A model generated the notes under the pieces. It saw only the letters and a list, made by a program, of their open reading frames with translations, was not told the DNA's origin and made no database searches. A DNA stretch of 64,000 bases, from NCBI GenBank assembly GCA_023379265.1, contig JAMCUI010000009.1:252908-316907 (forward strand). Direction: 5' to 3'. This document shows positions 12,791 through 45,717 of the stretch, in pieces. The translations under genes and the position numbers were made by a program. Position 1 is the stretch's first letter; every line of letters starts with the position of its first letter. The DNA is from Patescibacteria group bacterium (GTDB taxonomy: Bacteria; Patescibacteriota; Microgenomatia; 2-02-FULL-39-11).

Positions 12791-12794
12791 TATA

Positions 12795-14423: not shown

Positions 14424-16084
14424 AGATAAATTTTTTGATTGTTTTGATACTGATATTAAGCATTTTTCTGCGTTTTTGGCATCTTAATGAGTTCCCTGCA
14501 ACACTTTATGGAGATGAACAAGCTTTTGCCTGGAATGCTTACAATATCCTTTTGACCGGCAAGGATGAGTATGGGAAGCCCTTTCCTCTAGAATTCAGGT
14601 CGTTTGACGACTACAAAGCTCCAATCCCAGTATATATACTTGTGCCATTTTTCAAGGTGATGGGGATGAATATGTTTTCCATAAGGCTTCCAGTAGCAAT
14701 TTCTTCCGTAATAACGGTTTATGCAGTATATCTTCTTTCAGGATTATTTTTCAGGAAGAAAGCTTCGCTAATAATTACTTTTCTTATGGCAATTTCTCCA
14801 TGGCATATACATCTGTCCAGGGGTTATTTTGAGGCAACGATGAGTCTGTTGTTTTTTATACTGGGTATTTATTTCTATTTTGCCAGTAAGAATAGGTTGA
14901 AGATTATGTTTTTTGGGATATTTTTTTTCGCCCTATCGCTTTACACGTATTTCACCCCAAGAATTCTTGTACCCATTTTTCTTCTGTTTCTTTTTATTTA
15001 CAGCTATAAATATCGAGACCGGTTAGTAACAGCTAAAGAAATGTTGAAGAAGTTTACAGTCAGTTTCATATTTTTTATCATACTTATTTCTCCCCTTATT
15101 AAAGTAACATTTTTCGGAGAAGGATTATCACGTTTCAACAAACTTACTGGTTCGCTAGAATTAGAAGCAGTCCAAACTGTTGTTAAAGAAAGAAACACTT
15201 CAAATTTATCAGCCAGATGGAAACCTTTGTTTCATAATAGATATTTAGCAACGGTAAGATTGGTTGCCGATAATTATCTAGAGCTTTTGTCTCCAAACTT
15301 CTGGTACATTTATGGAGACAGTTCCTTGCGGTATTTTACCGGCAATATGGGTATGTTCTACCTTCTGGAGTTTCCGTTTTTTATTGTCGGAGCATATCTG
15401 CTGTTTGTTAAAAAAAGAAAAGTCGCCTTATTTTTCTTTGTGTGGATCCTCTTGGCGCCTATTCCAGCAGCTTTAGTAGGAAAACCATATGCAGTGCGGA
15501 CTCTGGCAATCCTTCCGGCGCCATTTATTTTTGTCGGATATGGAATATATAAAAGCTTTGATATGGTAAAGTATATGTTTGGCAGACGTATTCTTACAGT
15601 ATCATTGGTTTTACTTTTTACCCTCTCTCTTTTTACACTTCTAATAAGGTATTACATGGAATATCCGGTTTATGCTGCAACTTGGTGGGGGTGGGAAAAT
15701 AAAGCGGCTATAGATTATGCAATGGCACGGTCGACAAAATATAAGGATATATTCATTTCAAATTTTTACAGCGGCGCTACATTGGCTTTTGCCGTCTATA
15801 ATCATTATGATCCAATACAATACAGATATGCCATAAATCATCCTGTCACTATGGCTGACGGAAGACATCTTGTAAAACTGGGAAAGTATTATTTTGGTTC
15901 CTTGGATCTTAATAAAAATAGGTTAGAAGAGAAGATAATTCCTACCGACAGCCTTTATATAGGACGTCCCGAAGAACCAAGGGGAGAAGACCAAATAGTT
16001 GCTCCTGACGACGGAAGGCTAATTTTTGTCGTGCATGATACATTGCGTAAAAAATGTTATATTTATGCGAAAATTCCCTGCTGA
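14420..16084 (+). CDS. GT-C fold glycosyltransferase, ArnT/PMT-like, array copy 5
   Basis: 'YGDEQAFAWNAYNILLTGKDEYG', 'AISPWHIHLSRGYFEA' and 'KPYAVRTLAILP'. ATGA overlap with copy 4. Confidence 0.7.
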   Translation: MKINFLIVLILILSIFLRFWHLNEFPATLYGDEQAFAWNAYNILLTGKDEYGKPFPLEFRSFDDYKAPIPVYILVPFFKVMGMNMFSIRLPVAISSVITVYAVYLLSGLFFRKKASLIITFLMAISPWHIHLSRGYFEATMSLLFFILGIYFYFASKNRLKIMFFGIFFFALSLYTYFTPRILVPIFLLFLFIYSYKYRDRLVTAKEMLKKFTVSFIFFIILISPLIKVTFFGEGLSRFNKLTGSLELEAVQTVVKERNTSNLSARWKPLFHNRYLATVRLVADNYLELLSPNFWYIYGDSSLRYFTGNMGMFYLLEFPFFIVGAYLLFVKKRKVALFFFVWILLAPIPAALVGKPYAVRTLAILPAPFIFVGYGIYKSFDMVKYMFGRRILTVSLVLLFTLSLFTLLIRYYMEYPVYAATWWGWENKAAIDYAMARSTKYKDIFISNFYSGATLAFAVYNHYDPIQYRYAINHPVTMADGRHLVKLGKYYFGSLDLNKNRLEEKIIPTDSLYIGRPEEPRGEDQIVAPDDGRLIFVVHDTLRKKCYIYAKIPC

Positions 16085-16086
16085 AC

Positions 16087-17706
16087 ATGATTAAAAAAAA
16101 TATTGCAATTATATTTATAATTCTGTTATTGTCCGCAATGCTCAGGTTGTACAGGATAAACATAAATCCGCCATCACTTTCATGGGATGAAGCTTCACTC
16201 GGGTATAATGCATTTCTTATTGGGTCATCTCTTCATGATGAGCATGGGGAATACATTCCTTTGGCACGTTTTATTGCCTTTGGAGATTATAAACCTCCAG
16301 GATATATATATGCGGACGTTCTGCCCGTCCGTCTTTTAGGGCTGAATGAGTTTTCCGTCAGATTTCCGTCTGCTGTTTCCGGAATATTGATGGTTTTAGT
16401 GACATATCTTTTAGTAAAGGAATTATTCGGAAGCAAGAGAATCGCTCTACTAGCGTCTTTATTTATTGGTATCTCGCCATGGTCACTGCAACTTTCGCGG
16501 GCGGCATACGAGGCAAATATGGCGGCCTTTTTGAATTTGTCGGGAGTTTATTTTTTCCTCCTGTCACGGAAGAGGAAATGGTTTTTAGCTCTATCGGTAG
16601 TGTTATTCATTGCTTCATTTTATACTTTCAATGCCAACAGGATAATCGCACCGTTTCTTCTATTATTCCTATCAGTCTATTTTTGGAGGGATATGCTTTC
16701 AAATAAGAAGTGGGTCATTATTTCAGTGCTTATGGGTATGGTGTTAGTTTCTCCTAGCATACAGTATCTCTTAAGCCGTGAAAGCAAGCTTCGTTTGCAA
16801 GAAGTATCCATTTTCAATAATCTTGCTCCCTTAAAACAATCAAATGAAATGATAGCATATGATAAAGGAGCTTGGTGGGCAAAAATAATTCATAACAGAA
16901 GAGTGCTTTATGGAATGGATTTCCTGAAGCACTATTTTGACAATTTTACCGGTAGGTTTCTCTTTGTCGAAGGCGATGCAAATCCCAGGTTGTCAGTGCA
17001 AAACATGGGGGAACTTTATGTTTTTGATCTATTTTTTCTCATTGCTGGGGGATTCTGGTTATTTAAAAAGAAAAAAGATGTCTTCTGGCCTCTTATTTTT
17101 TGGATGATTATAGTACCAATTCCTTCAGCCTTGGCAAAGGAAACTCCACATGCTTTGAGGATTGTATCAATACTGCCAGTATACCAGATTATTATCGCCT
17201 ATGGGGTCTATATGACTTTTAATAAATTAAAAGTAAGATTACCTTTCAATATATTTCAAACCGCATTGGTTATGATTGTATTAGTTCTTACTGCCTGCGT
17301 CTATTATTATTTGCACAATTATTATATTCATTATCCAATTGACTGGAGTGGTGAATGGCAATACGGGTATAAACAGATGGTTTCCTATGTGACGCCGCTT
17401 GAAAGCAAGTATGACCATATTTTTGTGACAGAGTCTTATGGTAGGCCCTATATATATTTTGCTTTTTACAACAGGTATACGGAGGGTAAACTTCTTAAAA
17501 TAAAGAAAGGTTCCAGGGACTGGTTTGGTTTTTGGCACGTATCGGATCTGGGTAAGATACATTTCGGTTTTGACAATCTGCAAAAATCCAAAGGGAAAAT
17601 ACTGATTGTGACAACATCCGGTAATATGCCCGGAGGTTATAAAGAGATAAAGGAAATACCAAATCTTAAGGGCGACACTGTATTTATCATCGGAAAGAAA
17701 TTATGA
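16087..17706 (+). CDS. GT-C fold glycosyltransferase, ArnT/PMT-like, array copy 6
   Basis: 'SWDEASLGYNAFLIG', 'GISPWSLQLSRAAYEANM', 'ETPHALRIVSILP' and 'GYKQMVSYV...RPYIYFAFYNRY'. I chose the ATG at 16087 (MIKKNIAIIF), right after the upstream stop. Confidence 0.7.
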   Translation: MIKKNIAIIFIILLLSAMLRLYRININPPSLSWDEASLGYNAFLIGSSLHDEHGEYIPLARFIAFGDYKPPGYIYADVLPVRLLGLNEFSVRFPSAVSGILMVLVTYLLVKELFGSKRIALLASLFIGISPWSLQLSRAAYEANMAAFLNLSGVYFFLLSRKRKWFLALSVVLFIASFYTFNANRIIAPFLLLFLSVYFWRDMLSNKKWVIISVLMGMVLVSPSIQYLLSRESKLRLQEVSIFNNLAPLKQSNEMIAYDKGAWWAKIIHNRRVLYGMDFLKHYFDNFTGRFLFVEGDANPRLSVQNMGELYVFDLFFLIAGGFWLFKKKKDVFWPLIFWMIIVPIPSALAKETPHALRIVSILPVYQIIIAYGVYMTFNKLKVRLPFNIFQTALVMIVLVLTACVYYYLHNYYIHYPIDWSGEWQYGYKQMVSYVTPLESKYDHIFVTESYGRPYIYFAFYNRYTEGKLLKIKKGSRDWFGFWHVSDLGKIHFGFDNLQKSKGKILIVTTSGNMPGGYKEIKEIPNLKGDTVFIIGKKL

Positions 17707-19316
17707 AATATAAAATAGCCCTGATTTCAATTATTGCTCTTGCCTTTTTTCTCAGATTTTGGCAGTTGGGAGCCAATCCTGCGTCTTTGGATTGGGACGA
17801 GGCTTCATTGGGATACAATGCCTATTCGATATTGAAAACAGGACGTGATGAATATGGTAGGTTTTTGCCTTTATCGATAAAATCATTCGGAGATTATAAG
17901 CCGCCATTATATTCTTATTTGACTATAATTCCTGTGGCAATCCTTGGGCTGACTGAATTTTCGACACGGTTTACATCGGCATTCTTCGGATTCTTAGCTG
18001 TTATTGTAGCGTATTTCCTTATAAAGGAGCTTTTTCCAAAAAGAAGTCGCCGGTTTTATCTTTTTTTCACTTTTCTTTTCTCTATTTCTCCCTGGCAGAT
18101 ACAGTTTTCCCGCGTGGCTTTTGAAGCAAACCTAGGCCTTTTCTTTTTCATGGGAGGAGTATTATTTTTCCTCAAAGGCTTAAGAAAGAAATTGTGGTAT
18201 CTTTTTTCTGCATTTTTCTTTGCTTTATCAATTTATGCCTATCACAGCCCTAGGCTCATAAGCCCACTGATGCTTTTGGGACTTTTGTTTATTTTTAGAA
18301 AGTACGTTGTAAAAAATCTAAAATGGCTTGTGGTAAGTATTGTCGTTTTGGGTTTTCTTGTGGCGCCGGTTTATATAGAAATGAGAACTACAGGCGCAAG
18401 ACTTGGTTCGGTCACAATAATGAATGATCAGGAGAGGTTGGGTAACAGTATCGGCAAAATAGAATTTGATCGCGGGAGAAGTGATCTTTTGGGTGTTTTG
18501 ACACACAACAGACGTGTAGTATACGGATTTGATATTCTAGCTGGATATCTTGACCACTTTAACTTTGATTTTCTTTTCCTCTATGGTGATGCGCCTGGCC
18601 GCCACCATGCCCTGAATATGGGAATGCTTTATCTCTGGACTCTGCCGTTTATACTTTTTGGATTTTATTACATGTTAAACCATAGGGATGAAAGAGCATG
18701 CGTTATATTTCTGTGGTTTCTTCTGGCACCTGCCGCAGCCTCAATAACAACTGGTACTCCTCATGCGGTGCGCTCATTGGAGTTTATCCCTACTTACCAG
18801 ATTTTTACAGCTGTTGGATTTTTTGAACTTCTATATATTCTGAGGGAGAAAATAAGACCGGAATTTTATAAGTCTTTTGTATCCTTGGCTGTATTTCTAC
18901 TACTAGTAAACTTTTTTTATTATATGCAAATGTATTGGGTTCATACGCCGGTTATGGATTCCCAATCCTGGCAGTATGGATATAAACAGGCTGTTACTGT
19001 CGTAGATAAATATGCATCAAATTACAAAAGAATAATTGTAACTTATAGGTATGACCAGCCGTATGTATTTTTCCTTTTTTACAATAAAACTGATCCTGTT
19101 TGGTACCAAAAAAACTGGGGAAGTGGACAGATTCAGCGGGCAAACAGGTCGTTTGGCAAATATGAGTTTCGCAATATCGATTGGGCAATAGATTCAAAGT
19201 TGAGTGACACACTTCTAGTGGGTACTCCTGATGAAATTCCGCCCGGCGCAGGCAAGCTTCTATCTGAGATTCATTTTTTGGATGGCAGTGTTGCCTTCAG
19301 GATAGTGGGAAGGTAA
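17703..19316 (+). CDS. GT-C fold glycosyltransferase, ArnT/PMT-like, array copy 7
   Basis: 'DWDEASLGYNAYSILKTGRDEYG', 'SISPWQIQFSRVAFEANL', 'GTPHAVRSLEFIP' and 'GYKQAVTVV...QPYVFFLFYNKTDPVWYQKN'. ATGA overlap with copy 6. Confidence 0.7.
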   Translation: MKYKIALISIIALAFFLRFWQLGANPASLDWDEASLGYNAYSILKTGRDEYGRFLPLSIKSFGDYKPPLYSYLTIIPVAILGLTEFSTRFTSAFFGFLAVIVAYFLIKELFPKRSRRFYLFFTFLFSISPWQIQFSRVAFEANLGLFFFMGGVLFFLKGLRKKLWYLFSAFFFALSIYAYHSPRLISPLMLLGLLFIFRKYVVKNLKWLVVSIVVLGFLVAPVYIEMRTTGARLGSVTIMNDQERLGNSIGKIEFDRGRSDLLGVLTHNRRVVYGFDILAGYLDHFNFDFLFLYGDAPGRHHALNMGMLYLWTLPFILFGFYYMLNHRDERACVIFLWFLLAPAAASITTGTPHAVRSLEFIPTYQIFTAVGFFELLYILREKIRPEFYKSFVSLAVFLLLVNFFYYMQMYWVHTPVMDSQSWQYGYKQAVTVVDKYASNYKRIIVTYRYDQPYVFFLFYNKTDPVWYQKNWGSGQIQRANRSFGKYEFRNIDWAIDSKLSDTLLVGTPDEIPPGAGKLLSEIHFLDGSVAFRIVGR

Positions 19317-19317
19317 A

Positions 19318-19350
19318 CCCATCTTACTTTTCGTAGAAATGTTAGATGGG
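19318..19350 (+). terminator. Stem-loop immediately after the GT-C array stop (candidate terminator, no U-tract)
   Basis: CCCATCT (19318-19324) pairs with AGATGGG (19344-19350). An inner TTTTC/GAAA stem flanks a GTA loop. It lies 2 nt after the TAA of ORF 17703-19316. Confidence 0.3.
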
Positions 19351-19369
19351 TATATACTGAGTAACCAAG

Positions 19370-19397
19370 TTGCAGACCTGAGTTAAAGAAGTATAAA
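19370..19397 (+). promoter_or_regulatory. Candidate sigma70-like promoter for the galE-glf operon
   Basis: TTGCAG (19370-19375), a 16-nt spacer, then TATAAA (19392-19397). The ATG at 19408 is only ~4-10 nt from the predicted TSS, so the leader is short. Confidence 0.3.
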
Positions 19398-19407
19398 ATA
19401 TCAGAAT

Positions 19408-20337
19408 ATGAAAATCTTAGTTACTGGCGGAGCAGGATTTATTGCGTCACATATAGTTGATGCTTTTATAGCCAAAGGGTATGAAGTCTGTGTGGTTGAT
19501 AATTTATCCACAGGGCATAGGGACTTTGTAAATAAGAATGCGGTATTTTATGAGGCTGATATAAGAGACAGGAAAGCAATCGAAAAGATTTTTCAGAGAG
19601 AGAAACCAGATATTATAGATCATCATGCGGCACAAATAAGCGTACGTAATTCTGTTGATGATCCTATAAATGATGCGCAGGTAAATCTTCTTGGGCTCTT
19701 AAATCTTTTGGAGACAGGTAGAAAAACAGGTATAAAAAAAGTGATATTTGCTTCATCTGGCGGGGTCGTCTATGGCGAAGCAAAAAAGGTGCCAACGCCT
19801 GAAAGTTATAAACCGTTGCAGCCGTTGTCGCCGTATGGAGTCTCCAAATTGGCTTCCGAGTATTATCTCCATTTTTATCATAAGACCTACGGTATACCAT
19901 TTGTGGCCTTAAGATATTCCAATGTTTATGGACCCAGACAAAATCCGCATGGGGAAGCTGGAGTTGTTGCTATATTCAGTCTCAAGCTATTGTATGGGCA
20001 GGTACCTGTTATAAACGGCGATGGCAGGCAAACTAGGGATTATGTGTATGTAGCTGATGTGGTAAAGGCAAATGTTTTGGCTGCAAAAAAGTCTGTCGTT
20101 GGAGCTTTTAATATCGGGACGGGCAAAGAGACAGATGTGGTGAAAATTTATGAGAAAATCAGAAAATCTACCGATAGTCAGATAGTCGCAAAACACGGCC
20201 CAGCCAAGGATGGGGAGCAGAAGAGGAGTTGTTTAGATGCCTCAATGGCGGATGAAAAATTGGGTTGGGAACCGCAGGTAGATTTATCCAAAGGATTGGA
20301 CTTAACAGTGGCATATTTCAAAAATCTCAGACAATAA
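19408..20337 (+). CDS. NAD-dependent sugar-nucleotide 4-epimerase (UDP-glucose 4-epimerase GalE-like, short form)
   Basis: '[18 protein letters not shown]' Rossmann motif, 'YGVSKLASEYY' (YxxxK) and 'NVYGPRQNP'. The 'SSGGVVYG' pattern fits an epimerase rather than a 4,6-dehydratase. Confidence 0.7.
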   Translation: MKILVTGGAGFIASHIVDAFIAKGYEVCVVDNLSTGHRDFVNKNAVFYEADIRDRKAIEKIFQREKPDIIDHHAAQISVRNSVDDPINDAQVNLLGLLNLLETGRKTGIKKVIFASSGGVVYGEAKKVPTPESYKPLQPLSPYGVSKLASEYYLHFYHKTYGIPFVALRYSNVYGPRQNPHGEAGVVAIFSLKLLYGQVPVINGDGRQTRDYVYVADVVKANVLAAKKSVVGAFNIGTGKETDVVKIYEKIRKSTDSQIVAKHGPAKDGEQKRSCLDASMADEKLGWEPQVDLSKGLDLTVAYFKNLRQ

Positions 20338-20349
20338 AATTATTCTGCA

Positions 20350-21816
20350 ATGATAAAAAATTCAAAAAAAGTCGTAATTCTAGGAGCAGGATTGGCTGGT
20401 TTGGCCGCCGGATATGAATTGTCCAAAAAAGGGATAAACGTGGAGATCGTGGAAAAATGGGATGATGTGGGTGGTTTGGCTCGTACCATAAATGTAAATG
20501 ACTTTCAGTTTGATACTGGCCCGCACCGTTGGTATACCAAAAGCAATATGGTTAACCGGTGGATGTTGAAACTTCTTGGTAACGAGGTAATAAAAGTCCC
20601 AAGACTGACAAGGATATATTTTGACGGGAAATTCTTCTATTATCCCATAAAACTTATGAACGCCCTTTCGGGAATTGGTATATGGAAAGCCATAAAAGCC
20701 GTAATTGATTATATTTACGCCAGAATCCGCGCAAGGATTTTCCAGCCGAAACTATTAACCATGGAAGATGGCTATATTAATCAATTCGGCAAAACTCTGT
20801 ATGAACTTTTTTTCAAGCGTTATAGTGAGAAATTGTGGGGAGCGGACTGTCGAACTATTTCCATTGATTGGGTGGGACAGCGGACCCGCGGGCTGAATAT
20901 TTTTACCCTTATTAGAGAGACGTTGTTTAAGAGCAAAAGTGTAGTGTCTCTTGTGGATGAATTCTCTTACCCCAAAAAAGGAGTGGGTAGGCTAGCCCAG
21001 AAAATGGCTGAAGAAATAAAGAAAAAGGGAGGGAGAATATACTTGAGTGCTGAAGTGATCGGTATTTCCTGTGAAAAAAACAGCATTAAGTCAGTTGAAG
21101 TATCCTTTAAGAGTAAAAAGAAAACCAGACTTTTAGCTGATTATTTTATTTCAAGCATTCCCCTAAATGAATTGGTCAGCCGGATGACCCCACGCCTAGA
21201 CATTAAATATCTGAATTTAGCTTCAAAGCTCACCTACAGAGATGAATTACAGGTTGCGCTATTTGTAAAAAAAACGCATATTACTCCAGATACATGGATT
21301 TATGTCCATCCAAAGGAGATTCCATTTATGAGAGTGATGGAAATGGATAATTGGAGTGATGAATTATCTCCTGAAGGGACAACTACTTTAGTTTTTGAGG
21401 TGGCCTGTACGATGGGAGATGCCGTGTGGCGTAAAAATGATAAAAATGTCATTGATATGGTATCAAATTCTTATATAAAGGAGTTTAAGCTTATTAAAAA
21501 AAGCGATATATTGGGAGGATATGTCCACCGAGTACCCAAAGAATATCCTGTCTATCATGTTAATTATGATGACGATGTCTTAAAGATTAAAGATTTATTG
21601 AAACAATTTTCCAATCTTCAGATTATCGGCAGGAACGGTACTTTCCGTTATAACAATATGGATCATTCAATTGAGATGGGATTGTATGCCGCTTGGAATA
21701 TTATTGCTGGTCGGAAAAAATATGACATAGAGTCGGTAAATATTGAAAGAGAATATCTAGAGGAGAAAAAAATTGAGAATTTAGAGGATGAGACAGTTGA
21801 GACTGAAGATGAGTAA
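20350..21816 (+). CDS. Glf-family flavoenzyme (NDP-sugar pyranose/furanose mutase, UDP-galactopyranose mutase-like, long form with acidic C-tail)
   Basis: 'VVILGAGLAGLAAGYEL...GG' FAD dinucleotide fold, 'GPHRWYT' and 'FDGKFFYYPI', and 'LYELFFKRYSEKLWG', which closely matches the Glf 'LYEKFFRGYTEKQWG' region. 488 aa, with a C-terminal 'EDETVETEDE' tail. Confidence 0.6.
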   Translation: MIKNSKKVVILGAGLAGLAAGYELSKKGINVEIVEKWDDVGGLARTINVNDFQFDTGPHRWYTKSNMVNRWMLKLLGNEVIKVPRLTRIYFDGKFFYYPIKLMNALSGIGIWKAIKAVIDYIYARIRARIFQPKLLTMEDGYINQFGKTLYELFFKRYSEKLWGADCRTISIDWVGQRTRGLNIFTLIRETLFKSKSVVSLVDEFSYPKKGVGRLAQKMAEEIKKKGGRIYLSAEVIGISCEKNSIKSVEVSFKSKKKTRLLADYFISSIPLNELVSRMTPRLDIKYLNLASKLTYRDELQVALFVKKTHITPDTWIYVHPKEIPFMRVMEMDNWSDELSPEGTTTLVFEVACTMGDAVWRKNDKNVIDMVSNSYIKEFKLIKKSDILGGYVHRVPKEYPVYHVNYDDDVLKIKDLLKQFSNLQIIGRNGTFRYNNMDHSIEMGLYAAWNIIAGRKKYDIESVNIEREYLEEKKIENLEDETVETEDE

Positions 21817-21822
21817 ACATAT

Positions 21823-22593
21823 ATGACAAAAAATACCAAAGAAAAGAAAGTTGTAGTTGTTATGCCGGCATACAATGCCGAAAAGACAATAAAAAAAACC
21901 TACAATGATATCCCCCAAGACGCAGTAGACGAAGTGATAGTTGTAGATGATGATAGCGCTGACAGTACTGTGAAAATTGCCAAAAAGTTGAAACTTGCCG
22001 TATTTGTTCACGATAAAAATTTGGGATACGGAGGGAATCAGAAGACGTGTTATAGGGAGGCTTTGAGGAAAAATGCCGATATAATAGTGATGATTCATCC
22101 TGATTATCAGTATGATGCCACTTTGACTAAATATCTTGTACAACCAATCATTGACGGAAAGTTTGATATCATGTTAGGAAGCAGGATAAGAAGCAGAAAA
22201 GAGGCTCTTTCAGGAGGCATGCCTTTGTATAAATACATAAGCAACAGGGTTCTTACACTTTTTGAGAATATCATTCTTGATCTGAATCTTTCCGAATACC
22301 ATACAGGTTTTCGTGCTTTTAGCAGTAATGTTCTGAAGAGGTTGCCTTTAGATAAATTTTCAGATGACTTTGTTTTTGACCAGGAAATTCTAGTTAGTGC
22401 CCATGCTGCTGGTTTTACCATTGGAGAAATTGCAGTACCCGTGCGCTATTTTCCTGAAGCATCTTCAATAAATTTTATCCGTTCTACTAGATATGGAATA
22501 ATGATATTGTATACGCTGGTGAAGTATTTACTTAAAGATTACGGCATGGATTTTCCAATATTCCATTTTAAGGGAAAAAGTGAAAAAAACTGA
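21823..22593 (+). CDS. Polyprenyl-phosphate glycosyltransferase, GT2 Dpm1/GtrB/CsbB-like
   Basis: 'VVVVMPAYNAEKTI', 'VIVVDDDSADST' and 'GSRIRSRKEALSGGMPLYKYISNRVLTLFEN...YHTGFRAF' (the ArnC/GtrB-type R-x-R...S/T region). Immediately followed by a YfhO-like membrane protein. Confidence 0.65.
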   Translation: MTKNTKEKKVVVVMPAYNAEKTIKKTYNDIPQDAVDEVIVVDDDSADSTVKIAKKLKLAVFVHDKNLGYGGNQKTCYREALRKNADIIVMIHPDYQYDATLTKYLVQPIIDGKFDIMLGSRIRSRKEALSGGMPLYKYISNRVLTLFENIILDLNLSEYHTGFRAFSSNVLKRLPLDKFSDDFVFDQEILVSAHAAGFTIGEIAVPVRYFPEASSINFIRSTRYGIMILYTLVKYLLKDYGMDFPIFHFKGKSEKN

Positions 22594-24232
22594 CTTTATA
22601 GTTATTGCCTTAATTATCCTTTTTTCTGTACTTACCCTAAAGGATCTTTTTATTCCGGGATTTTATACAAGTCATGATGGCATTCACCAGATAGTCAGAC
22701 TGTATTATTTTGATAAACTCATGCATGATGGACAGTTTCCACCGCGTTATGTCGGAAACCTGTTGTACGGTTTTGGTTATCCTCTTTTCAGTTTTTCTTA
22801 CCAAATGCCGTGGTTTTTCGGGGAGCCTCTTCATTTTGCTGGATTGTCGGTAATTGATAGTGTAAAGATGACTTTTCTAGTCACTTATGTTCTTTCAGGA
22901 ATTGCTATGTTTATCTTCCAAAAAAAAGTATTTGGTACTTTACCAGCTATTGTAGGTACTGTTGTATACCAATATGCTCCCTACAGATTTTCCAATATTT
23001 TTGTCAGGGCGGCAATCGGGGATGCGACGTCGTTTATTTTTCCTCCACTTTTTTTCTTGGCCATTTATATGATTAAAAAAGGCAAAAAAATTAGTGGAAA
23101 ATGGATTTCACTCTCGGCATTATCCATTGCCGGCCTATTACTTTCCCATGCAATGGTATTTTTCTTATTTATTATTTGTATAGGTATCTATTTTATTTTG
23201 TCATATCTTTTTGTCCCAAATAAAAAACTATTCCTTGTATCTTTTATTTCCATCGGATTTCTAGCATCGGGTCTATCCGCTTATTATTTTTTTCCCTCTC
23301 TAATTGAAAGAAACTATACTGTATTTGCTTCTATATTTGGTCCTGAATTTGTCGGAAATACATTTTTGTCTATTAAAGACTTGATCTACTCTCCTTGGGG
23401 GTACGGTATGATGAACGCGAAAGAAGGAGCAATGTCTCTTCAGGTGGGAATTGGTCAATGGTTATCTGTTATTGCAGGTTTTATAGGATTGATTTGGCTT
23501 TCTTTGCGTCGCAATCTAAGTAATAAAGAAAAACTACTTAGAGGGGAAGCGTTTATTTTTCTTGTCATTTTTATTTTTTCTGTCTTTCTAATGCTTCCTT
23601 TATCGCTATTTTTATGGAAACTTATAAGCCGCTTCGCCATAGTTGATTTTACGTGGAGAGTATTGCCTGTGACAGTGTTAGCAGCATCATATCTGGCCGG
23701 ATTTTTATCATCTGTTGTTCACGGCAGAGAGTTTTTTGCGTTTTTATTAGTACTTATCACGTTATACGCGGTGAGAAATGATACTAGAATAAACCAGGTG
23801 CAGAACTGGTCGATGCCGTTTTACCTTAGTCTAGAATCGACTACTAATCAGAATGATGAATATACACCGCAGTGGGTTAGATCAGATCTGTTGAAACCCG
23901 GCTTACCCAAAGTAGAATTTTCCGGAAATAATGCCGTGATAGATATAAAAGACATGAAATCAAATTATATAAGTTTGGCGGAAAATGCTTCACAATCAGG
24001 CATTTTGCAGATAAACAGAGTTTATTATCCCGGGTGGGTGGCTTATGTCAACGGCCGGCAAGCTCAAATAAATTACAAAGATAACGGTTTTATGAAATTG
24101 CGCGTTGCCGCAGGAAGAAATCTTGTTGAGGCAAAGTTTATGGAGACGCCGCTTAGAAAGATAAGTGATATTCTATCGATCATCTCGCTTTTGGTCGCAT
24201 CATATCTCATAATTAGATACAGGAAAACATGA
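22580..24232 (+). CDS. Polytopic membrane protein, YfhO/GT-C-like (candidate lipid-linked sugar transferase partner of the upstream GT2)
   Basis: 550 aa. First-loop 'FYTSHDGIHQIVRLYYFDKLMHDGQFPPRYV...GFGYPLFSFSYQMPW'. Its C-terminal soluble domain 'VYYPGWVAYVNGRQAQI' shares a motif with the C-terminus of ORF 3497-5809. Confidence 0.45.
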   Translation: MKKTDFIVIALIILFSVLTLKDLFIPGFYTSHDGIHQIVRLYYFDKLMHDGQFPPRYVGNLLYGFGYPLFSFSYQMPWFFGEPLHFAGLSVIDSVKMTFLVTYVLSGIAMFIFQKKVFGTLPAIVGTVVYQYAPYRFSNIFVRAAIGDATSFIFPPLFFLAIYMIKKGKKISGKWISLSALSIAGLLLSHAMVFFLFIICIGIYFILSYLFVPNKKLFLVSFISIGFLASGLSAYYFFPSLIERNYTVFASIFGPEFVGNTFLSIKDLIYSPWGYGMMNAKEGAMSLQVGIGQWLSVIAGFIGLIWLSLRRNLSNKEKLLRGEAFIFLVIFIFSVFLMLPLSLFLWKLISRFAIVDFTWRVLPVTVLAASYLAGFLSSVVHGREFFAFLLVLITLYAVRNDTRINQVQNWSMPFYLSLESTTNQNDEYTPQWVRSDLLKPGLPKVEFSGNNAVIDIKDMKSNYISLAENASQSGILQINRVYYPGWVAYVNGRQAQINYKDNGFMKLRVAAGRNLVEAKFMETPLRKISDILSIISLLVASYLIIRYRKT

Positions 24233-25032
24233 ACAAAATATCCGTCGCCATAGCTACATATAATGAAGGGAAAAACATCAGCAAATGCTTGGAAAGTGTG
24301 AAAAGTTGGGTGGATGAGATTGTGATTGTGGATGGTACATCAACAGATGACACTGTTAAAATAGCCAAAGAGTTTGGCGCGAGTGTAATTTCTGCAGATA
24401 ATCCTGACATGTTTCATATAAACAAGCAGAAAGCCATAGACGCATGTAAATCTGGAAATTGGATACTCCAACTTGATGCAGACGAAGTAGTGTCAACCGA
24501 TTTGAAAAAAGAAATTATAGTTGCTATTAATAACCAACAACCAATAACTCATAGCTTACAATCAATCAATGGTTTCTGGCTTCCACGCAAGAATTTTTTC
24601 TTGGGAAGATTTTTTGAAAAAGGAGGACAGTATCCTGACTATACTTTGAGGTTATACCGTAAGGGAAAGGGCAAGTTGCCCTGTAAAAGCGTCCATGAAC
24701 AGGCGGTTGTAGAAGGAGAGACTGCATATCTTAAAAACCCTCTTTTGCACTACCCATATCCAAATTTCGCGCATTATTTAGAACATTTCAATAAATATAC
24801 CGATATATTTGCCGACGAGTTGATAGACAAGAAAATTTCAATTTCTTTTTCTTCTATAGTTTCTTTTATGTTTATAAAACCATTTTTATGGTTTCTTTTG
24901 ACTTTTGTAAGGCATAAAGGCTTCGTAGACGGTTTTCCCGGATTTGTTTTTTCCTTCTTTTCTGCTTTGCGATATCCTGTTTCCTATATTAAATATTGGG
25001 AAAAGAAGAAACTAGGAAATATTTCCAAGTAA
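24229..25032 (+). CDS. Family 2 glycosyltransferase with C-terminal membrane segment
   Basis: 'ISVAIATYNEGKNI', 'IVIVDGTSTDDT', 'QLDADE' and 'YPDYTLRLYRKGKG'. Paralog of ORFs 2-769 and 1671-2444. Hydrophobic C-terminus. Confidence 0.7.
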   Translation: MNKISVAIATYNEGKNISKCLESVKSWVDEIVIVDGTSTDDTVKIAKEFGASVISADNPDMFHINKQKAIDACKSGNWILQLDADEVVSTDLKKEIIVAINNQQPITHSLQSINGFWLPRKNFFLGRFFEKGGQYPDYTLRLYRKGKGKLPCKSVHEQAVVEGETAYLKNPLLHYPYPNFAHYLEHFNKYTDIFADELIDKKISISFSSIVSFMFIKPFLWFLLTFVRHKGFVDGFPGFVFSFFSALRYPVSYIKYWEKKKLGNISK

Positions 25033-25033
25033 A

Positions 25034-26095
25034 ATGATAAAAGGAAGAAAACTCAAAGTTGCAATTGTTGTTCCTCCGATTGCAGGCCACAAGATGCGCG
25101 GAACCGGCAATTACACTCAAAATCTATATACGGCTTTGAATAAGATTCAAGATGTTGAAGTAAGTTTAAAGACGATCGATGAAATTAGATATTGCACTGC
25201 CGATGTTATCCATTTTCCTTATTTTGACCCTTTTTTTTTGACTCTTCCCTTCATAAAGTCAAAGCCTACAGTAGTCACGGTTCATGATCTTATCCCTCTT
25301 CGTTACCCGAGTCATTTTCCATCCGGTTTAAAGGGTTTTCTAAAATGGAATCTGCAGAAAATTTCTCTTTGGAGCGTCGACGCAGTCATTACTGACTCTG
25401 TTTCATCACAGAATGATATTGAAGGATTTGCCGATATTAAAAAGGAGAAAATACATGTGATCTATCTGGGGGTAACACCGGAATTTAGCAAAGCATACTC
25501 CAAAGATTATAAAGAAAAAGTAATAAAAAGTTTGTCGCTTCCCCAAAAGTTCGTACTAAATGTGGGGGATATCAATTACAATAAAAACATCCCTGGGTTA
25601 TTGAAGGCTTTTTCAGTTTTAGTTTCAAGGAATTCTGGATTGAAATTAATCTTAGTAGGTGAAGGATTTACGCGGCCATCGACAGAATTGGTTCAGATGA
25701 CGGAGTTGATGAGAGAGATGGAAATAGAAGATAAGGTATTGAGAGTTAGTTCATTGGATGTACTCGAATTGGCAGTTGTATATCAACTAGCACAAGTGTA
25801 TGTGCAGCCATCATTTGCTGAGGGATTTGGTCTTCCCGTTCTTGAGGCTTTTGCTGCCGGGTGTCCAGTGGTAGTTGCAAACACCACCAGTCTCCCCGAG
25901 GTGGTAGGTAGTGCCGCCGTTATGTTTAACCCACAGAATACGGATACGCTTGTAAAGTCAATTTCCCTCCTCTTAAAAGACAAGGGTAAAAGAGATTACT
26001 TTATATCCCAGGGAAAGAAGAGAGCAAAATTATTTACTTGGGAAAAATGTGCCAGAGAGACAGCGGAAATTTACAGAAAATTTATCCATAATTAA
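25034..26095 (+). CDS. GT4-family glycosyltransferase
   Basis: 'SFAEGFGLPVLEAFAAGCPVVVANTTSLPEVVG' (glycos_transf_1 signature). Confidence 0.75.
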   Translation: MIKGRKLKVAIVVPPIAGHKMRGTGNYTQNLYTALNKIQDVEVSLKTIDEIRYCTADVIHFPYFDPFFLTLPFIKSKPTVVTVHDLIPLRYPSHFPSGLKGFLKWNLQKISLWSVDAVITDSVSSQNDIEGFADIKKEKIHVIYLGVTPEFSKAYSKDYKEKVIKSLSLPQKFVLNVGDINYNKNIPGLLKAFSVLVSRNSGLKLILVGEGFTRPSTELVQMTELMREMEIEDKVLRVSSLDVLELAVVYQLAQVYVQPSFAEGFGLPVLEAFAAGCPVVVANTTSLPEVVGSAAVMFNPQNTDTLVKSISLLLKDKGKRDYFISQGKKRAKLFTWEKCARETAEIYRKFIHN

Positions 26096-26202
26096 ATAGG
26101 AGCTACGCATTCCAATATCATGCTGAATTTGTTTGTGATTCCGAGACTAGTTCGGGATGACAATCTAAACTACGATTTATTGCGTAACTCCTGATTAAAA
26201 TA

Positions 26203-27399: not shown

Positions 27400-27434
27400 T
27401 TGAATACATCTTAATTCTCCTATAAAATTAAGCA

Positions 27435-28115
27435 ATGAGACTTTTGATAGGGATACCTGCCTATAATGAAGAAAAAATGATTGGGGTTGTTATTTCATCT
27501 TTGCCTAAAAGACTTACGGGAGTTGATAAGGTTGATATAGTGGTGGTTGACGATGGGTCTGAAGATAGAACTGGAGAAATTGCCCAATCTAAAAGGGTTA
27601 CAGTTCTGCGTCATATCATAAACAGAGGATTGGGTGGAGCGTTAAAAACTATATTTGCATTTGCATTAGAGAGAAATTATGATATTTTAGTGACTTTTGA
27701 CGCTGATGGACAACATGAGTCAAAATATATATCTGATGTTATTAAACCTATTCTTTCACAAAAATCAGATGTGGTTATAGGTACCAGATGGAAAAGTAAG
27801 GCACATGTACCCTTTTCCCGAAGATTGATAAACCAATTAGCAAACGTAATAACTTTTATTCTTTACCATGTTTGGACTTCTGATTCTCAATCGGGATTTC
27901 GGGCATTTAATAAAAACTCAATAAACAAAATTAAATTGCAGACTGACGGAATGGAAGTTTCTAGTGAATTTTTTAAGGAGATAAAAAGTAATAATCTGAG
28001 ATTTTCTGAAATATCCATAATTCCTGTTTATTCTGATTATTCATTAGAGAAAGGCCAAAGATTGAGTAATGCTCCTTCAGTAATGATAAATTTACTTTTG
28101 AGGCTATTAAGATAG
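27435..28115 (+). CDS. Polyprenyl-phosphate glycosyltransferase, GT2 Dpm1/GtrB-like (soluble form)
   Basis: 'LLIGIPAYNEEKMI', 'VVVDDGSEDRT', 'FDADGQHE' and 'GTRWKSKAHVPFSRRLINQLANVI...SGFRAF'. Confidence 0.65.
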   Translation: MRLLIGIPAYNEEKMIGVVISSLPKRLTGVDKVDIVVVDDGSEDRTGEIAQSKRVTVLRHIINRGLGGALKTIFAFALERNYDILVTFDADGQHESKYISDVIKPILSQKSDVVIGTRWKSKAHVPFSRRLINQLANVITFILYHVWTSDSQSGFRAFNKNSINKIKLQTDGMEVSSEFFKEIKSNNLRFSEISIIPVYSDYSLEKGQRLSNAPSVMINLLLRLLR

Positions 28116-28119
28116 ATCT

Positions 28120-28485
28120 ATGCATTTAGTATTTACACAAGTTGTCTTAAGTATTTTTATTGTATTTGCTCTATCGCGTGTTTTTTTGCGGTTCAAAAGC
28201 GGAGAAGTGACATTTTTGGGATTCCTATTTTGGATTTTGCTTTTCGGATCTGCTTTGGCAATTATCATTTATCCGCCCATTTCTGGGGGTATCGCCAGAA
28301 TATTGGGTATAGGCCGTGGAGTAGATCTTGTTATTTATACTTCAATCGTACTTCTTTTTTATCTTGTTTTTAGACTTTATGTCTATCTTCAAGATATGCG
28401 TCATGAACTGACGAAATTGGTACAGAAGCTGGCTATGAAGGAGTTGGATGAAAAAAATGAAAAAAAACCCTCTTCCCAAAATTAG
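28120..28485 (+). CDS. Small 4-TM membrane protein, DUF2304-like (commonly paired with Dpm1-like GT2)
   Basis: 121 aa. 'GIGRGVDLVIYTSIVLLFYLVFRLYVYLQD' followed by a charged C-terminal tail. Directly downstream of the GT2. Confidence 0.4.
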   Translation: MHLVFTQVVLSIFIVFALSRVFLRFKSGEVTFLGFLFWILLFGSALAIIIYPPISGGIARILGIGRGVDLVIYTSIVLLFYLVFRLYVYLQDMRHELTKLVQKLAMKELDEKNEKKPSSQN

Positions 28486-31222: not shown

Positions 31223-31231
31223 CTTTCCCCT

Positions 31232-31259
31232 TTTACACGACCACCGGTTTTTATATACT
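31232..31259 (+). promoter_or_regulatory. Candidate sigma70-like promoter
   Basis: TTTACA (31232-31237), a 16-nt spacer, then TATACT (31254-31259), in the gap between the stop at 31222 and the ATG at 31279. Confidence 0.35.
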
Positions 31260-31278
31260 TACGTTATTCCATTTGCAT

Positions 31279-34236: not shown

Positions 34237-34265
34237 GGCAATTACTTATAGAAATTAATTTCCAG

Positions 34266-34973: not shown

Positions 34974-34986
34974 ACGCTTATTGATT

Positions 34987-45716: not shown

Positions 45717-45717
45717 C

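Follow-up and report, generated by a model that had tools for sequence, protein, structure and literature searches.

Fungi and parasites use UDP-galactopyranose mutases (UGMs), which also occur in bacteria, to contract the six-membered ring of galactose to a five-membered one. In these enzymes a histidine loop lies over the flavin, and two essential arginines and three tyrosines hold the diphosphate of UDP (PMC3624792, PMC3322874). Such a mutase, Glf, is part of lactococcal PSP, where WpsA/WpsB prime C55-P, Galf is added in the cytoplasm to the C55-P-linked glycan and a GT-C then transfers (PMC10821137). In the three-component systems (GtrA/GtrB/GtrC; CsbB/YfhO; GacI/GacJ/GacK/GacL; PpgS/Rv3632/Rv3779), a DPMS-like GT2 is paired with a polytopic GT-C; GacJ is a DUF2304 protein and PpgS is stimulated by Rv3632 (bioRxiv 10.1101/180810). 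Furanoses carried on a polyprenyl monophosphate, with a GT-C acting outside, are known as decaprenyl-P-Araf in Corynebacterineae and as undP-Ribf. Both donors derive from PRPP through UbiA-like phosphoribosyltransferases and a phosphatase (and DprE1/E2), not through a flavin mutase and a GT2, and the paper on the undP-Ribf three-component system mentions neither hexofuranoses nor mutases (PMC11127046).

We analyzed a window of 64 kb, that is, the whole stretch of DNA presented above. The four ORFs of the original prediction are all present on the plus strand at 19408-24232, and encode a short GalE, a flavoprotein, a GT2 and a polytopic GT-C (Table 1). The surrounding sugar-assembly island spans about 33 kb, contains more than 10 GT-C genes and belongs to a Microgenomates/Gottesmanbacteria-like genome. 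The SDR and the flavoprotein are separated by 12 nt. Downstream of the flavoprotein, gaps of only 6 to 13 nt had been described; this holds for the junction with the GT2 (6 nt), but the GT2 and the GT-C overlap by 14 nt, as counted from the sole available GT-C start (GTG at 22580, with AAGGGA before it). The next GT2 (24229-25032) in turn shares 4 nt with the end of the GT-C gene, and the plus-strand gene array is uninterrupted from about 50 to 32934. The operon, which was thought to end at 24232, therefore goes on beyond this position. A scan for promoter and terminator consensus sequences returned nothing exceeding the shuffled expectation.

Table 1. Genes of the sugar-assembly island discussed in the text, in window positions
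Feature	Position	Strand	Supporting match
Four tandem PMT_2/ArnT-like GT-C paralogues, directly upstream of GalE	12795..19316	+	ORFs; Pfam PMT_2 for 17703-19316
Short-type UDP-hexose 4-epimerase (GalE-like SDR), 309 aa	19408..20337	+	Pfam Epimerase, PDB 4zrm
Homologue of FAD-dependent UGM-type NDP-sugar pyranose/furanose mutases, 488 aa, PRK07208 clade, eukaryote-type long form	20350..21816	+	
DPMS-like GT2, 256 aa, probable polyprenyl-phosphate hexose synthase, 0 predicted TM helix	21823..22593	+	
Polytopic GT-C-like membrane protein, 550 aa, YfhO/PTPS_related group	22580..24232	+	
GT2 (267 aa) and GT4 (353 aa), Leloir-type transferases, candidate UDP-furanose users	24229..26095	+	Pfam Glycos_transf_2, Glycos_transf_1
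PIG-V/Mannosyl_trans2-like GT-C, 398 aa	26203..27399	+	Pfam PF04188, 27.6 bits (above the cut-off of 22.4)
PpgS/GacI-like GT2 (226 aa) and DUF2304 (GacJ/Rv3632-like) small membrane partner	27435..28485	+	NCBIfam PpgS, Pfam DUF2304

The same SDR-flavoprotein-GT2 order, with overlapping or near-abutting ORFs, recurs in related loci (L001-L003, L004, L005, L090, L092 and L093), and the flavoprotein-GT2 part is present in L088, where the contig end cuts off the upstream gene. This arrangement is not due to chance. The mutase lies immediately upstream of the GT2 in every mutase-containing cluster examined (the window, L001-L005, L088, L090, L092 and L093), often with overlapping ORFs, and most of these clusters have a GT-C after the GT2. 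Every syntenic locus keeps the GT2 and GT4 pair immediately downstream.

The flavoprotein had been proposed to be a long-form mutase of the Glf family. The three signature motifs originally quoted are all found in it (GPHRWYT at residues 57-63, FDGKFFYYPI at 91-100 and LYELFFKRYSEKLWG at 150-164). With 488 aa it exceeds E. coli Glf (367 aa) by 121 aa, in agreement with the reported surplus of about 100 aa over bacterial UGMs, and its C-terminus (...ENLEDETVETEDE) is acidic, as described. The kinship with long-form UGMs stands, and neither the FAD motif nor any catalytic Arg, Tyr or His is lost, but the protein fails the bacterial Glf models and belongs instead to the PRK07208 clade. In particular, it scores below the cut-offs of PF03275 GLF (20.2 versus 26.3 bits) and TIGR00031 (57 versus 303.75 bits, over residues 7-172 only), and passes that of NCBIfam NF005548 (PRK07208.1-4, 'hypothetical protein'; 462.5 versus 389 bits), with residues 5-477 covering profile positions 3-475 of 488. 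In phmmer comparisons it aligns over its full length to the UGMs of T. cruzi (TcUGM, E 2e-22) and A. fumigatus (UgmA, hereafter AfUGM), whereas bacterial UGMs (E. coli K-12, K. pneumoniae, M. tuberculosis and D. radiodurans) and C. jejuni UNGM resemble it only over the N-terminal 165 residues or so (about 4-170). Scores across the family show the same trend, with a median of 31 bits for E. coli Glf against 70-73 bits for eukaryotic UGMs. Judged by sequence, the protein is a long-form UGM relative outside the bacterial Glf family as Pfam and TIGRFAM define it, and no other known prokaryotic group comes closer to eukaryotic UGMs than the large, uncharacterised PRK07208 clade. The flavoprotein nevertheless differs clearly from the eukaryotic enzymes. 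Identity to the enzymes of A. fumigatus, T. cruzi and L. major is only 20-21%; where they have G-G-H-V-I-F, the histidine loop is G-P-H-R-W-Y, its Pro shared with bacterial UGMs and its Arg peculiar to the clade; and the position of AfUGM residue 458 holds Met, the prokaryotic state, and not Gln (PMC3322874). The flavoprotein also has an extra conserved C-terminal N-x-E-x-EY-L-E helix besides the acidic tail, and is encoded in a prokaryotic operon.

To compare active sites, we verified the residue mapping against the published AfUGM numbering and took residue roles from PMC3624792 (Table 3) and PMC3322874. AfUGM H63, Y104, F158, W167, R182, W315, Y317, R327, Y419, R447, Y453, N457 and S461 correspond to H59, Y98, F154, W163, R178, W316, Y318, R328, Y399, R428, Y434, N436 and S440 of the flavoprotein. 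All are conserved, and the mapped positions are kept at 88-100% among 129 family representatives (30-58% identity); for the catalytic histidine (H59), the two arginines (R178 and R328) and the three tyrosines (Y318, Y399 and Y434) the count is 126-129 out of 129. The glycines of the N-terminal GxGxxG (G12, G14 and G17) are invariant, and the FAD ligands L43, R428 and S440 match AfUGM L46, R447 and S461. With the active-site Arg and Tyr residues and the FAD motif all kept, the mutase call is not weakened. The protein also has the three-domain UGM fold, and its AF2 model (pLDDT 86.3) is of low confidence only in the tail and at residues 180-202, the counterpart of the mobile UGM substrate flaps. 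No TM or amphipathic anchor is predicted in it. The substrate pocket is less faithful to the fungal enzyme. Among the galactose contacts (AfUGM R182, N207 and N457), R178 and N436 are kept, but N207 is replaced by V202, within the low-confidence loop, and by V, I or A in the PRK07208 family. Arg60, next to the catalytic histidine, is specific to the family and invariant in 125 of the 129 representatives, and the uracil ligand Q107 of AfUGM is not conserved. Because of these three changes, the substrate may be other than UDP-Gal.

The gene before the mutase was predicted to encode a GalE-like 4-epimerase, and this is well supported. The SDR matches Pfam Epimerase (E 9e-63) and, over its full length, the UDP-glucose 4-epimerase of T. 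maritima (PDB 4zrm, E 1.2e-95, residues 1-306 to 4-309). Aligned with E. coli GalE, its GxxGxxG (G7, G8, G10), S116/S117 and Y143-x3-K147 are invariant. Although it falls under the TIGR01179 cut-off (200 versus 262 bits), these features identify it as a genuine short GalE. The gatekeeper Y299 of E. coli GalE aligns with a Ser, and a small residue at this position goes with acceptance of N-acetylated substrates. A Sphingomonadales protein combines a GalE-like SDR and the mutase in a single fusion.

The 256-aa GT2 was originally described as a GtrB-like polyprenyl-P-sugar synthase. Its nearest relatives are indeed polyprenyl-P-hexose synthases, but it lacks the C-terminal TM pair of GtrB: no TM segment is predicted, a threshold of 1.6 giving no hydrophobic segment and one of 1.2 a single weak one. 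The top three NCBIfam models are all lipid-phosphate glycosyltransferases, each below its equivalog cut-off (AglJ, 85 versus 325 bits; PpgS, 60 versus 370 bits; Dol-P-hexose transferase, 44 bits). A profile of 28 orthologues searched against the PDB finds P. furiosus DPMS (5mlz) as the best match (E 1e-10), the next being N-terminal only (3e-6), and in the GT-A catalytic domain the invariant HPDYQYD corresponds to DPMS DADLQH, the D-x-Q metal/donor motif. The enzyme is thus a probable DPMS-like polyprenyl-phosphate hexose synthase. The following GT-C has 9-13 hydrophobic segments and an Asp33 in the first loop that is invariant among its relatives. It can be placed in the YfhO/PTPS_related group through these relatives (six of nine orthologues and paralogues match PF10131 PTPS_related, best E 7e-10, and three YfhO, best E 7e-9), but the window protein itself, called YfhO-like at the outset, matches Pfam YfhO only in its C-terminal part and under the cut-off (23.4 versus 28.5 bits). 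No PDB sequence match was found for it, profile search included. The gene is absent from L001 and duplicated in L005, L088 and L090.

A DPMS-like GT2 followed by a polytopic GT-C recalls the three-component systems. As in Gac and PpgS, the array also contains a second, PpgS/GacI-like GT2 (NCBIfam PpgS 141.8 bits, under the cut-off) with a DUF2304 partner (Pfam, 72 bits), the only small multi-TM ORF of the window; by similarity, the pair is probably a second lipid-P-sugar synthase, and its sugar probably HexNAc. The four tandem GT-Cs upstream of GalE, whose orthologues match PMT/PMT_2 in L001, L004, L089 and L093, are potential consumers of lipid-P-sugar donors. Unlike the three-component systems, the locus has a GT2 without C-terminal TM helices and a ring mutase before it, and for over 10 GT-Cs there are two or three candidate synthases at most. 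Moreover, among the 50 ORFs scanned (up to 52689) there was no GtrA or Polysacc_synt Pfam match indicating a GtrA/GtcA-type or Wzx flippase.

Taken as a whole, the locus is tentatively best read, with somewhat less than even confidence, as one in which a UGM-type mutase and GalE provide the island with UDP-Galf or UDP-GalfNAc, while the GT2 independently makes an ordinary lipid-P-hexose. The short GalE would convert the gluco-epimer to UDP-Gal (or UDP-GalNAc), from which the mutase would form UDP-Galf (or UDP-GalfNAc) in the cytoplasm: reduced FAD would attack C1 of the NDP-sugar, the nucleotide would leave, the ring would contract on the flavin and the nucleotide would re-attach. One of the glycosyltransferases of the envelope-glycan island around the mutase would then use the furanose; none of them was recognised as a dedicated furanosyltransferase. 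The adjacent GT2 would most likely make, independently of the mutase, a common lipid-P-hexose donor for the many GT-Cs. Lactococcal PSP is the closest known model, since the island likewise combines a GacI/GacJ-like primer pair, a putative UDP-Galf supply, Leloir transferases and GT-Cs in one locus. The lactococcal (Firmicutes) system, however, has a canonical short Glf and a Wzx, whereas the present mutase belongs to the long PRK07208 clade and no Wzx occurs in the ORFs scanned.

Members of the mutase family are also found fused to other domains, and their neighbours are exclusively sugar nucleotide and glycosyltransferase genes. The fusions comprise mutase and GT2 (P0201), mutase, GT2 and PMT_2 GT-C (P0202/RNC81890.1, from a 3.26-Mb contig of a Phycisphaera MAG), mutase and a flippase-like domain (Promethearchaeota MAG), and RmlD-like, GFO_IDH_MocA and EamA-like domains. 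In distant loci, a specific membrane GT2 type directly adjoins the mutase (28 out of 80), a PMT_2 GT-C is no more than 7 kb away (16 out of 80), and in L050 a GT2-GT-C fusion stands beside it. The constant place of the mutase just upstream of the GT2, together with the GT2/GT-C fusions, favours a direct hand-over to the adjacent GT2 and speaks against the reading above.

Such a hand-over is the core of the original prediction: UDP-Galf would be converted by the DPMS-like GT2 to polyprenyl-P-Galf and flipped, and the YfhO/PTPS_related GT-C (perhaps with other GT-Cs) would galactofuranosylate outside the cytoplasm. It would follow the logic of decaprenyl-P-Araf and undP-Ribf, and is in line with the abutting mutase and GT2, the GT-C that usually comes next, and the fusions and neighbours of other phyla. 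The UGM equilibrium lies on the pyranose side, so that coupling to a transferase makes sense. The distribution of the GT2, however, argues against this coupling. Of the 60 informative metagenome loci with its homologues (54-73% identical in the best tblastn segment), 57 have no mutase within 3.5 kb, at identities as high as among mutase-linked copies, and a PMT_2 GT-C is directly downstream of the mutase-less GT2 in all four loci examined. At the positions invariant in mutase-linked GT2s, mutase-less copies differ only conservatively, with no divergence of a specificity type. L089 has an otherwise syntenic SDR-GT2-GT-C without the mutase; as it keeps every transferase, it does not discriminate which of them takes the furanose. 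Since the GT2 is DPMS-like and its family is widespread, mostly mutase-less and typically accompanied by a PMT_2 GT-C downstream, and since L089 is as described, the lipid-P-Galf route is weakened. In addition, the GT2 fused or adjacent to the mutase in other phyla is of a different subtype, absent from this island, L001 has no YfhO-like GT-C, the scanned ORFs contain no GtrA-type or Wzx flippase, and no mention of a lipid-P-Galf donor was found in the literature searched. We therefore consider this route unlikely, if still a serious candidate. The undiverged GT2 would be explained if the ring contracted on the lipid carrier after the GT2 had acted (polyprenyl-P-Galp to polyprenyl-P-Galf), with the same GT2 serving with or without the flavoprotein; fusions to membrane domains (flippase-like, EamA-like, GT2 and GT-C) would also be accounted for. 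Yet the residues with which UGMs bind UDP-sugars are kept (all five diphosphate ligands and those stacking on uracil), the flavoprotein has no predicted anchor, and a monophosphate would be a worse leaving group than UDP. We know of no precedent for such a reaction, and regard it as hardly likely at all.

Two other explanations concern the flavoprotein itself. A true ring mutase might act on another NDP-sugar (UDP-GalNAc, UDP-L-Ara or a 6-deoxyhexose), as do UNGM, the C. jejuni UDP-Arap mutase, Fcf2 and CDP-fucose mutases; flavin mutases for several NDP-sugars are described. The Ser at the GalE gatekeeper is consistent with the GalNAc type that had been offered as an alternative, the lost N207 contact and the new Arg60 fit a substrate other than UDP-Gal, and the RmlD-like and GFO_IDH_MocA fusions suggest different sugar chemistries in some family members. 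GalE adjacency, the GalE-mutase fusion and the retained uridine-stacking residues Y98, F154 and W163 indicate, however, a galacto-configured UDP-sugar, and we regard a different substrate as improbable. Database labels ('FAD-dependent oxidoreductase', 'protoporphyrinogen oxidase', 'amine oxidase') would instead agree with a conventional redox flavoenzyme that has the amine-oxidase/protoporphyrinogen-oxidase fold and whose substrate is a sugar or lipid intermediate. We consider this very unlikely, as phmmer matches to these oxidases are confined to the Rossmann motif in the first 60-100 residues or so while UGMs match end to end, the catalytic residues specific to UGMs hardly vary among family members, and the gene neighbours all belong to sugar nucleotide metabolism and glycosyl transfer.

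A lipid-linked ring-contracted sugar is unproven, as the neighbouring lipid-sugar GT2 usually works without a mutase. These results suggest that an envelope-sugar cluster of Patescibacteria carries an uncharacterised bacterial relative of the enzyme with which fungi and parasites contract six-membered galactose rings to five-membered ones.

The flavoprotein of the cluster had been read in the original prediction as a long-form Glf-family mutase. The Glf-type motifs quoted for it are present in the 488-aa product (residues 57-63, 91-100 and 150-164), as is the acidic tail. The protein scores below the cut-offs of Pfam GLF (20.2 versus 26.3 bits) and TIGR00031 (57 versus 303.75 bits), and above those of Pfam Amino_oxidase and NCBIfam NF005548 (PRK07208.1-4, 'hypothetical protein'; 462.5 versus 389 bits). 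When all PDB sequences are searched with phmmer, the best match is the UDP-galactopyranose mutase (UGM) of T. cruzi (E 2e-22, residues 6-451 to 10-451), followed by that of A. fumigatus (AfUGM), which aligns end to end. Bacterial UGMs align to residues ~4-170 only, and PPO, amine oxidases and phytoene desaturases over the dinucleotide-binding motif only. A 100% identical NCBI entry is named 'FAD-dependent oxidoreductase [Patescibacteria group bacterium]', and the closest named relatives are Gottesmanbacteria/Microgenomates.

We mapped AfUGM residues onto the flavoprotein by HMMER alignment, where 31 out of 31 probed residues match the published numbering after removal of a 3-residue tag, and took their functional roles from the literature (PMC3624792 Table 3; PMC3322874). 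The active-site arginines and tyrosines are all kept, namely the two essential arginines (R178 and R328) and the three diphosphate tyrosines (Y318, Y399 and Y434). So are the catalytic histidine (H59), the uracil-stacking Y98 and F154, the substrate-binding W163 (AfUGM W167), W316 (AfUGM W315), the galactose ligand N436 and the FAD ligands L43, R428 and S440. Ahead of the catalytic histidine, Pro58 replaces AfUGM G62; the corresponding sequence of E. coli Glf is GAH, while GPH is known from other bacterial UGMs. Met437 stands in place of Q458 and is the prokaryotic UGM state (PMC3322874). The flavoprotein also differs from AfUGM in having Arg60 in place of V64 and no equivalent of N207 and Q107. 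Across 129 family representatives (30-58% identity) aligned with MAFFT, conservation of the catalytic set is 88-100%; 125 of these sequences have Arg60, and the N207 position is I, V or A. Past the UGM core lies a C-terminal extension (residues 464-488) that eukaryotic UGMs do not have. Its motif, N-x-E-R-E-Y-L-E-E, is invariant across the Microgenomates clade and precedes the acidic tail. Even when 10 sequences at 39-57% identity are aligned, Y469 and E471 do not vary. A helix is predicted there with low confidence, and the extension may be a partner-docking site.

The family holding this protein, hereafter the PRK07208 clade, is large. HMMER, run exhaustively against 1.84 billion representatives, returned 1,514 clusters (at 50% identity) at E <=1e-30 and 5,036 at E <=1e-10. 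Against the best 150 family representatives, the median score is 70 bits for AfUGM and 73 bits for the T. cruzi enzyme, over nearly their full length, whereas for E. coli Glf it is 31 bits, over the N-terminus only; AfUGM and E. coli Glf give 13.5 bits. By these scores the clade is clearly nearer to the eukaryotic UGMs than canonical Glf is. Scanning one genome per species with a 10-sequence alignment, we found members at 35-42% identity in Thermomicrobiales, Cyanobacteria (Microcoleus, Oscillatoria and Chroococcidiopsis), Acidobacteriota, Gemmatimonadota, Planctomycetota, Proteobacteria, Bacillota and others. The family also spans Patescibacteria, Chloroflexota and one Asgard archaeon. The names given to it in curated databases are 'hypothetical protein' and 'amine/protoporphyrinogen oxidase'. 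A literature search found no paper on the family and no report of a UGM in Patescibacteria, absences that are weak evidence.

The enzyme predicted to supply the substrate is well supported. The 309-aa SDR ahead of the mutase is a close homologue of short GalE enzymes: it matches T. maritima UDP-glucose 4-epimerase (4zrm) over its full length (E 1.2e-95), followed in the PDB by T. thermophilus GalE and another short GalE. It shares with E. coli GalE the Rossmann glycines, the Ser and Y143-x3-K147, so that the catalytic residues are kept. Its score is under the TIGR01179 cut-off, which we attribute to the short GalE subtype. At the gatekeeper position, Y299 in E. coli GalE, the SDR has Ser, and in GalE classes such a small residue goes with accepting UDP-GlcNAc/GalNAc too. 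The flavoprotein is quite likely to be a ring mutase acting on the GalE product. We also considered that the two proteins form a DprE1/DprE2-like pair epimerizing a lipid-linked sugar by oxidation and reduction. This was rejected because the SDR is a close GalE homologue and the active site of the flavoprotein is UGM-type, not oxidase-type.

All four predicted ORFs were found on the plus strand exactly where predicted, within one unbroken array (see the table below). Short gaps separate the SDR from the flavoprotein (12 nt) and the flavoprotein from the GT2 (6 nt), but the GT2 and the GT-C overlap by 14 nt. The GT-C starts at a GTG preceded by AAGGGA, and its stop is overlapped by 4 nt by the next GT2. 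A promoter and terminator consensus scan of positions 17500-28500 returned sites no more numerous than in shuffled sequences, and yielded no operon boundaries.

Features of the sugar-assembly island and the adjoining genes
Feature	Coordinates	Strand	Content
Array	~50-32934	+	unbroken
Array, first part		+	GT2 x3, GT4, 770-aa YfhO protein, GT2
Array, second part		+	seven PMT/PMT_2-like GT-Cs
Six of these seven, back to back	9372-19316	+	PMT/PMT_2-like GT-Cs
Array, third part	19408-24232	+	the four genes under study
GalE-like SDR	19408-20337	+	309 aa
Flavoprotein	20350-21816	+	488 aa
C-terminal extension	21739-21816	+	residues 464-488
GT2	21823-22593	+	256 aa
GT-C	22580-24232	+	550 aa
Array, fourth part		+	GT2, GT4, PIG-V-like GT-C
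Array, fifth part		+	PpgS-like GT2 with DUF2304, GT2, two SDRs
PpgS/GacI-like pair	27435-28485	+	GT2, then at once a three-TM DUF2304 protein (GacJ/Rv3632-type)
Array, last ORF	31192-32934	+	580-aa hydrophobic membrane protein, no Pfam match
GT-C-bearing segments	3497-19316, 22580-24232, 26203-27399	+	770-aa YfhO, seven PMT/PMT_2-like, one YfhO/PTPS_related, one PIG-V-like
NDP-sugar block, part 1	32956-46497 (parts 1-3)	-	nucleotidyltransferase, 4,6-dehydratase, GFO_IDH_MocA oxidoreductase, SDR, three-domain thiamine-diphosphate enzyme
NDP-sugar block, part 2		-	FkbM methyltransferase, SDR, NeuB-like synthase with SAF domain
NDP-sugar block, part 3		-	xylose-isomerase-like TIM barrel, GT2, methyltransferase, DegT aminotransferase
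Genes in a row	46678-52689		carbamoyltransferase, GT4, asparagine synthase (glutamine-hydrolysing), GT4

The island is very dense in GT-C genes, at least 10 of which are supported by Pfam or orthologues in ~24 kb, alongside only two or three candidate lipid-P-sugar synthases. The convergent minus-strand block encodes an NDP-sugar tailoring pathway, where the thiamine-diphosphate enzyme suggests a branched-chain or two-carbon-extended sugar and the NeuB-like synthase a nonulosonic acid. Carbamoylation and amidation of the glycan are possible functions of the genes that follow.

The last two proteins of the cluster had been labelled GtrB-like and YfhO-like. The sole Pfam match of the 256-aa GT2 is Glycos_transf_2, and its top three NCBIfam matches (AglJ, PpgS and a haloarchaeal Dol-P-hexose transferase) are all under cut-off. 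A profile of 28 GT2 orthologues retrieves P. furiosus dolichol-P-mannose synthase (DPMS) from the PDB at E 1e-10, with the next match at 3e-6 and restricted to the N-terminus. The invariant HPDYQYD aligns to DADLQH of DPMS, with Asp and Gln kept. In the 550-aa GT-C, 9-13 segments are hydrophobic, and Asp33, which lies in the first loop, is invariant. Among nine of its orthologues and paralogues, six match PTPS_related and three YfhO; sequence and profile searches found no PDB relatives. Both labels therefore proved loose: the GT2 is DPMS-like but has no predicted TM helix, and the GT-C is polytopic but matches the YfhO model below threshold, in its C-terminal part only. A DPMS-like synthase plus GT-C is a reasonable description of the pair.

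Turning to the predicted coupling of mutase and GT2, their adjacency is real. The mutase is directly followed by a window-type GT2 in the related loci L001-L005, L088, L090, L092 and L093, where the two genes overlap or lie <=45 nt apart, and the SDR precedes the mutase wherever the upstream region is readable. The YfhO-like GT-C is missing in L001 and present in two copies in L005, L088 and L090. In a metagenome scan with the GT2, which returned 80 loci at 54-73% tblastn identity (best segment), 60 loci have >=700 nt upstream of the homologue. A mutase is near in three of these, but none is found within 3.5 kb in the other 57. Locus L089 reads PMT_2 x4 - SDR - GT2 - GT-C - GT2 - GT4, with no mutase and 10 nt between SDR and GT2; since it keeps all transferases of the island, it does not tell which of them would use a furanose. 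A stand-alone paralogue (L091) comes from the same sample as the full mutase cluster L093, and from the same Gottesmanbacteria genome going by the NCBI names for P0044 and P0328. We rejected the idea that mutase-less copies form a separate specificity clade. By identity they interleave with linked copies, those of L089 and L091 (70-77% identical to the window GT2) being closer to it than the linked copies of L004 and L005 (52-55%), and at positions invariant in the linked set they show only I/L, F/Y, V/I and I/M changes. At such identity levels the GT2 most likely has one conserved donor. In four out of four mutase-less loci examined (L142, L161, L168 and L102) the next gene is a PMT_2 GT-C, followed in L142 by MurJ. 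Three of the four carry C-terminal TPR repeats, reminiscent of eukaryotic TMTC O-mannosyltransferases. These pairs are a hint at the product of the GT2, which may be polyprenyl-P-mannose or another common donor of that kind. Since the GT2 usually occurs without a mutase, its donor is probably a common nucleotide sugar.

In other phyla, too, the mutase family occurs together with glycosylation functions. Pfam and NCBIfam searches of its representatives identified fusions of the mutase with a GalE-like SDR in Sphingomonadales (32% identical to the window SDR), with RmlD-like reductase and GFO_IDH_MocA oxidoreductase domains in metagenomic proteins (P0251 and P0205), and with an EamA-like domain. 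The RmlD-like and GFO_IDH_MocA fusions suggest that some members act on products of 6-deoxy or keto-sugar pathways or, alternatively, that the NAD(P)H enzyme fused to the mutase serves to keep its flavin reduced. The mutase is fused to a GT2 in P0201, and to a GT2 and a PMT_2 GT-C in P0202 (RNC81890.1), a 1409-1438-aa protein on a 3.26-Mb contig of a Phycisphaera MAG, with 15 hydrophobic segments downstream of the GT2 part. An Asgard archaeon (Promethearchaeota MAG, P0137, GAB4305232.1) encodes a fusion to a flippase-like membrane domain (LPG_synthase_TM / TIGR00374). This fusion may be informative on where eukaryotic UGMs come from and on a connection with lipid-linked sugars. Outside Patescibacteria, 37 out of 80 genome loci of the family contain one membrane GT2 subtype with C-terminal TM helices (SYDD-type, ...GSYDDAPG...YRNLLHHYVHQ...IEDIELGYRL...), whose scores are bimodal (>=194 bits versus <=121 for other GT2s). 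It directly adjoins the mutase on the same strand in 28 loci, and is the GT2 part of P0201 and P0202. One cyanobacterial pair of mutase and SYDD-type GT2 lies at about 5.73 Mb in Microcoleus vaginatus CP031705. A PMT_2-like GT-C lies <=7 kb from the mutase in 16 of the 80. On an Abditibacteriaceae chromosome (OZ255721.1, L050 3677-6772), the ORF just upstream of the mutase homologue is 1032 aa long, fuses a SYDD-type GT2 to a PMT_2-like GT-C, and is a second, independent GT2-GT-C fusion beside a mutase. We infer a strong enrichment of such neighbours over a rough expectation from general gene frequencies. Given these recurrent neighbours and fusions, the PRK07208 family as a whole is tied to membrane glycosylation. 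A PDB search with the SYDD-type GT2 gave generic GT-A N-terminal matches only and no GlfT2, and is uninformative on a furanosyl donor. The fused GT2s are not orthologous to the 256-aa GT2, and therefore back the principle and not this pairing.

On balance, we favor a GT2 that works independently of the mutase. It would be a lipid-P-hexose synthase serving the many GT-Cs of the island, and a Leloir transferase would bring the furanose into the glycan. The lactococcal PSP pathway is of this kind: a GacI/GacJ-type pair primes a glycan on C55-P, which receives Galf from UDP-Galf while still in the cytoplasm and is a substrate for GT-Cs at a later stage (PMC10821137). The island likewise holds such a pair, which is kept in the syntenic loci L001, L004 and L005 and looks like a second, mutase-independent polyprenyl-P-HexNAc synthase. 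That the adjacent GT2 instead loads the mutase product on a lipid, giving polyprenyl-phosphate-galactofuranose, seems rather unlikely: the adjacency is invariable in this lineage and mutase-GT2(-GT-C) fusions occur in other phyla, but most of the GT2 family is without a mutase, and L089 is otherwise syntenic. The known lipid-P-furanose donors differ, being pentofuranoses made from PRPP (PMC11127046), and the literature search found no report of a lipid-P-Galf donor, again weak evidence. Overall, the four-gene cluster is borne out as an observation, and its lipid-linked Galf interpretation is supported in part only.

We tentatively extend the lipid-linked alternative to a prokaryotic pathway for a lipid-phosphate-linked hexofuranose donor, which as a whole is doubtful. 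A PRK07208-type mutase would pass its NDP-furanose straight to a partner GT2, which would load it on polyprenyl phosphate for GT-Cs outside. In the island, the adjacent DPMS-like GT2 would act as partner; Cyanobacteria, Planctomycetota, Gemmatimonadota and others would use the SYDD-type membrane GT2, and the Phycisphaera MAG would have all three activities on one polypeptide. The clade would also be the prokaryotic stock of eukaryotic UGMs. If true, the pathway would be the counterpart, for a hexose, of the lipid donors of Araf and Ribf that derive from PRPP. Because the mutase is repeatedly found next to, or fused with, GT2, GT-C and flippase-like domains, a lipid-P-hexofuranose donor is a testable hypothesis.

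The most valuable element is the clade and not the operon model. We recognize it as a large family of predicted UGMs of the eukaryotic type, which in different phyla is connected with GT2, GT-C and flippase modules. UGMs are conventionally split into short prokaryotic and long eukaryotic enzymes, and this locus reveals a large prokaryotic family with an apparently complete UGM catalytic apparatus and the long architecture. Mammals have no galactofuranose, and UGM is a drug target in fungi, trypanosomatids and mycobacteria. The surface of Patescibacteria is presumed to be central to their epibiotic lifestyle, and the island offers concrete candidates for the chemistry of their envelope glycans. 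An activity assay on one family member would allow thousands of genes to be re-annotated, and would also show whether the envelopes of uncultured bacteria commonly contain furanoses.
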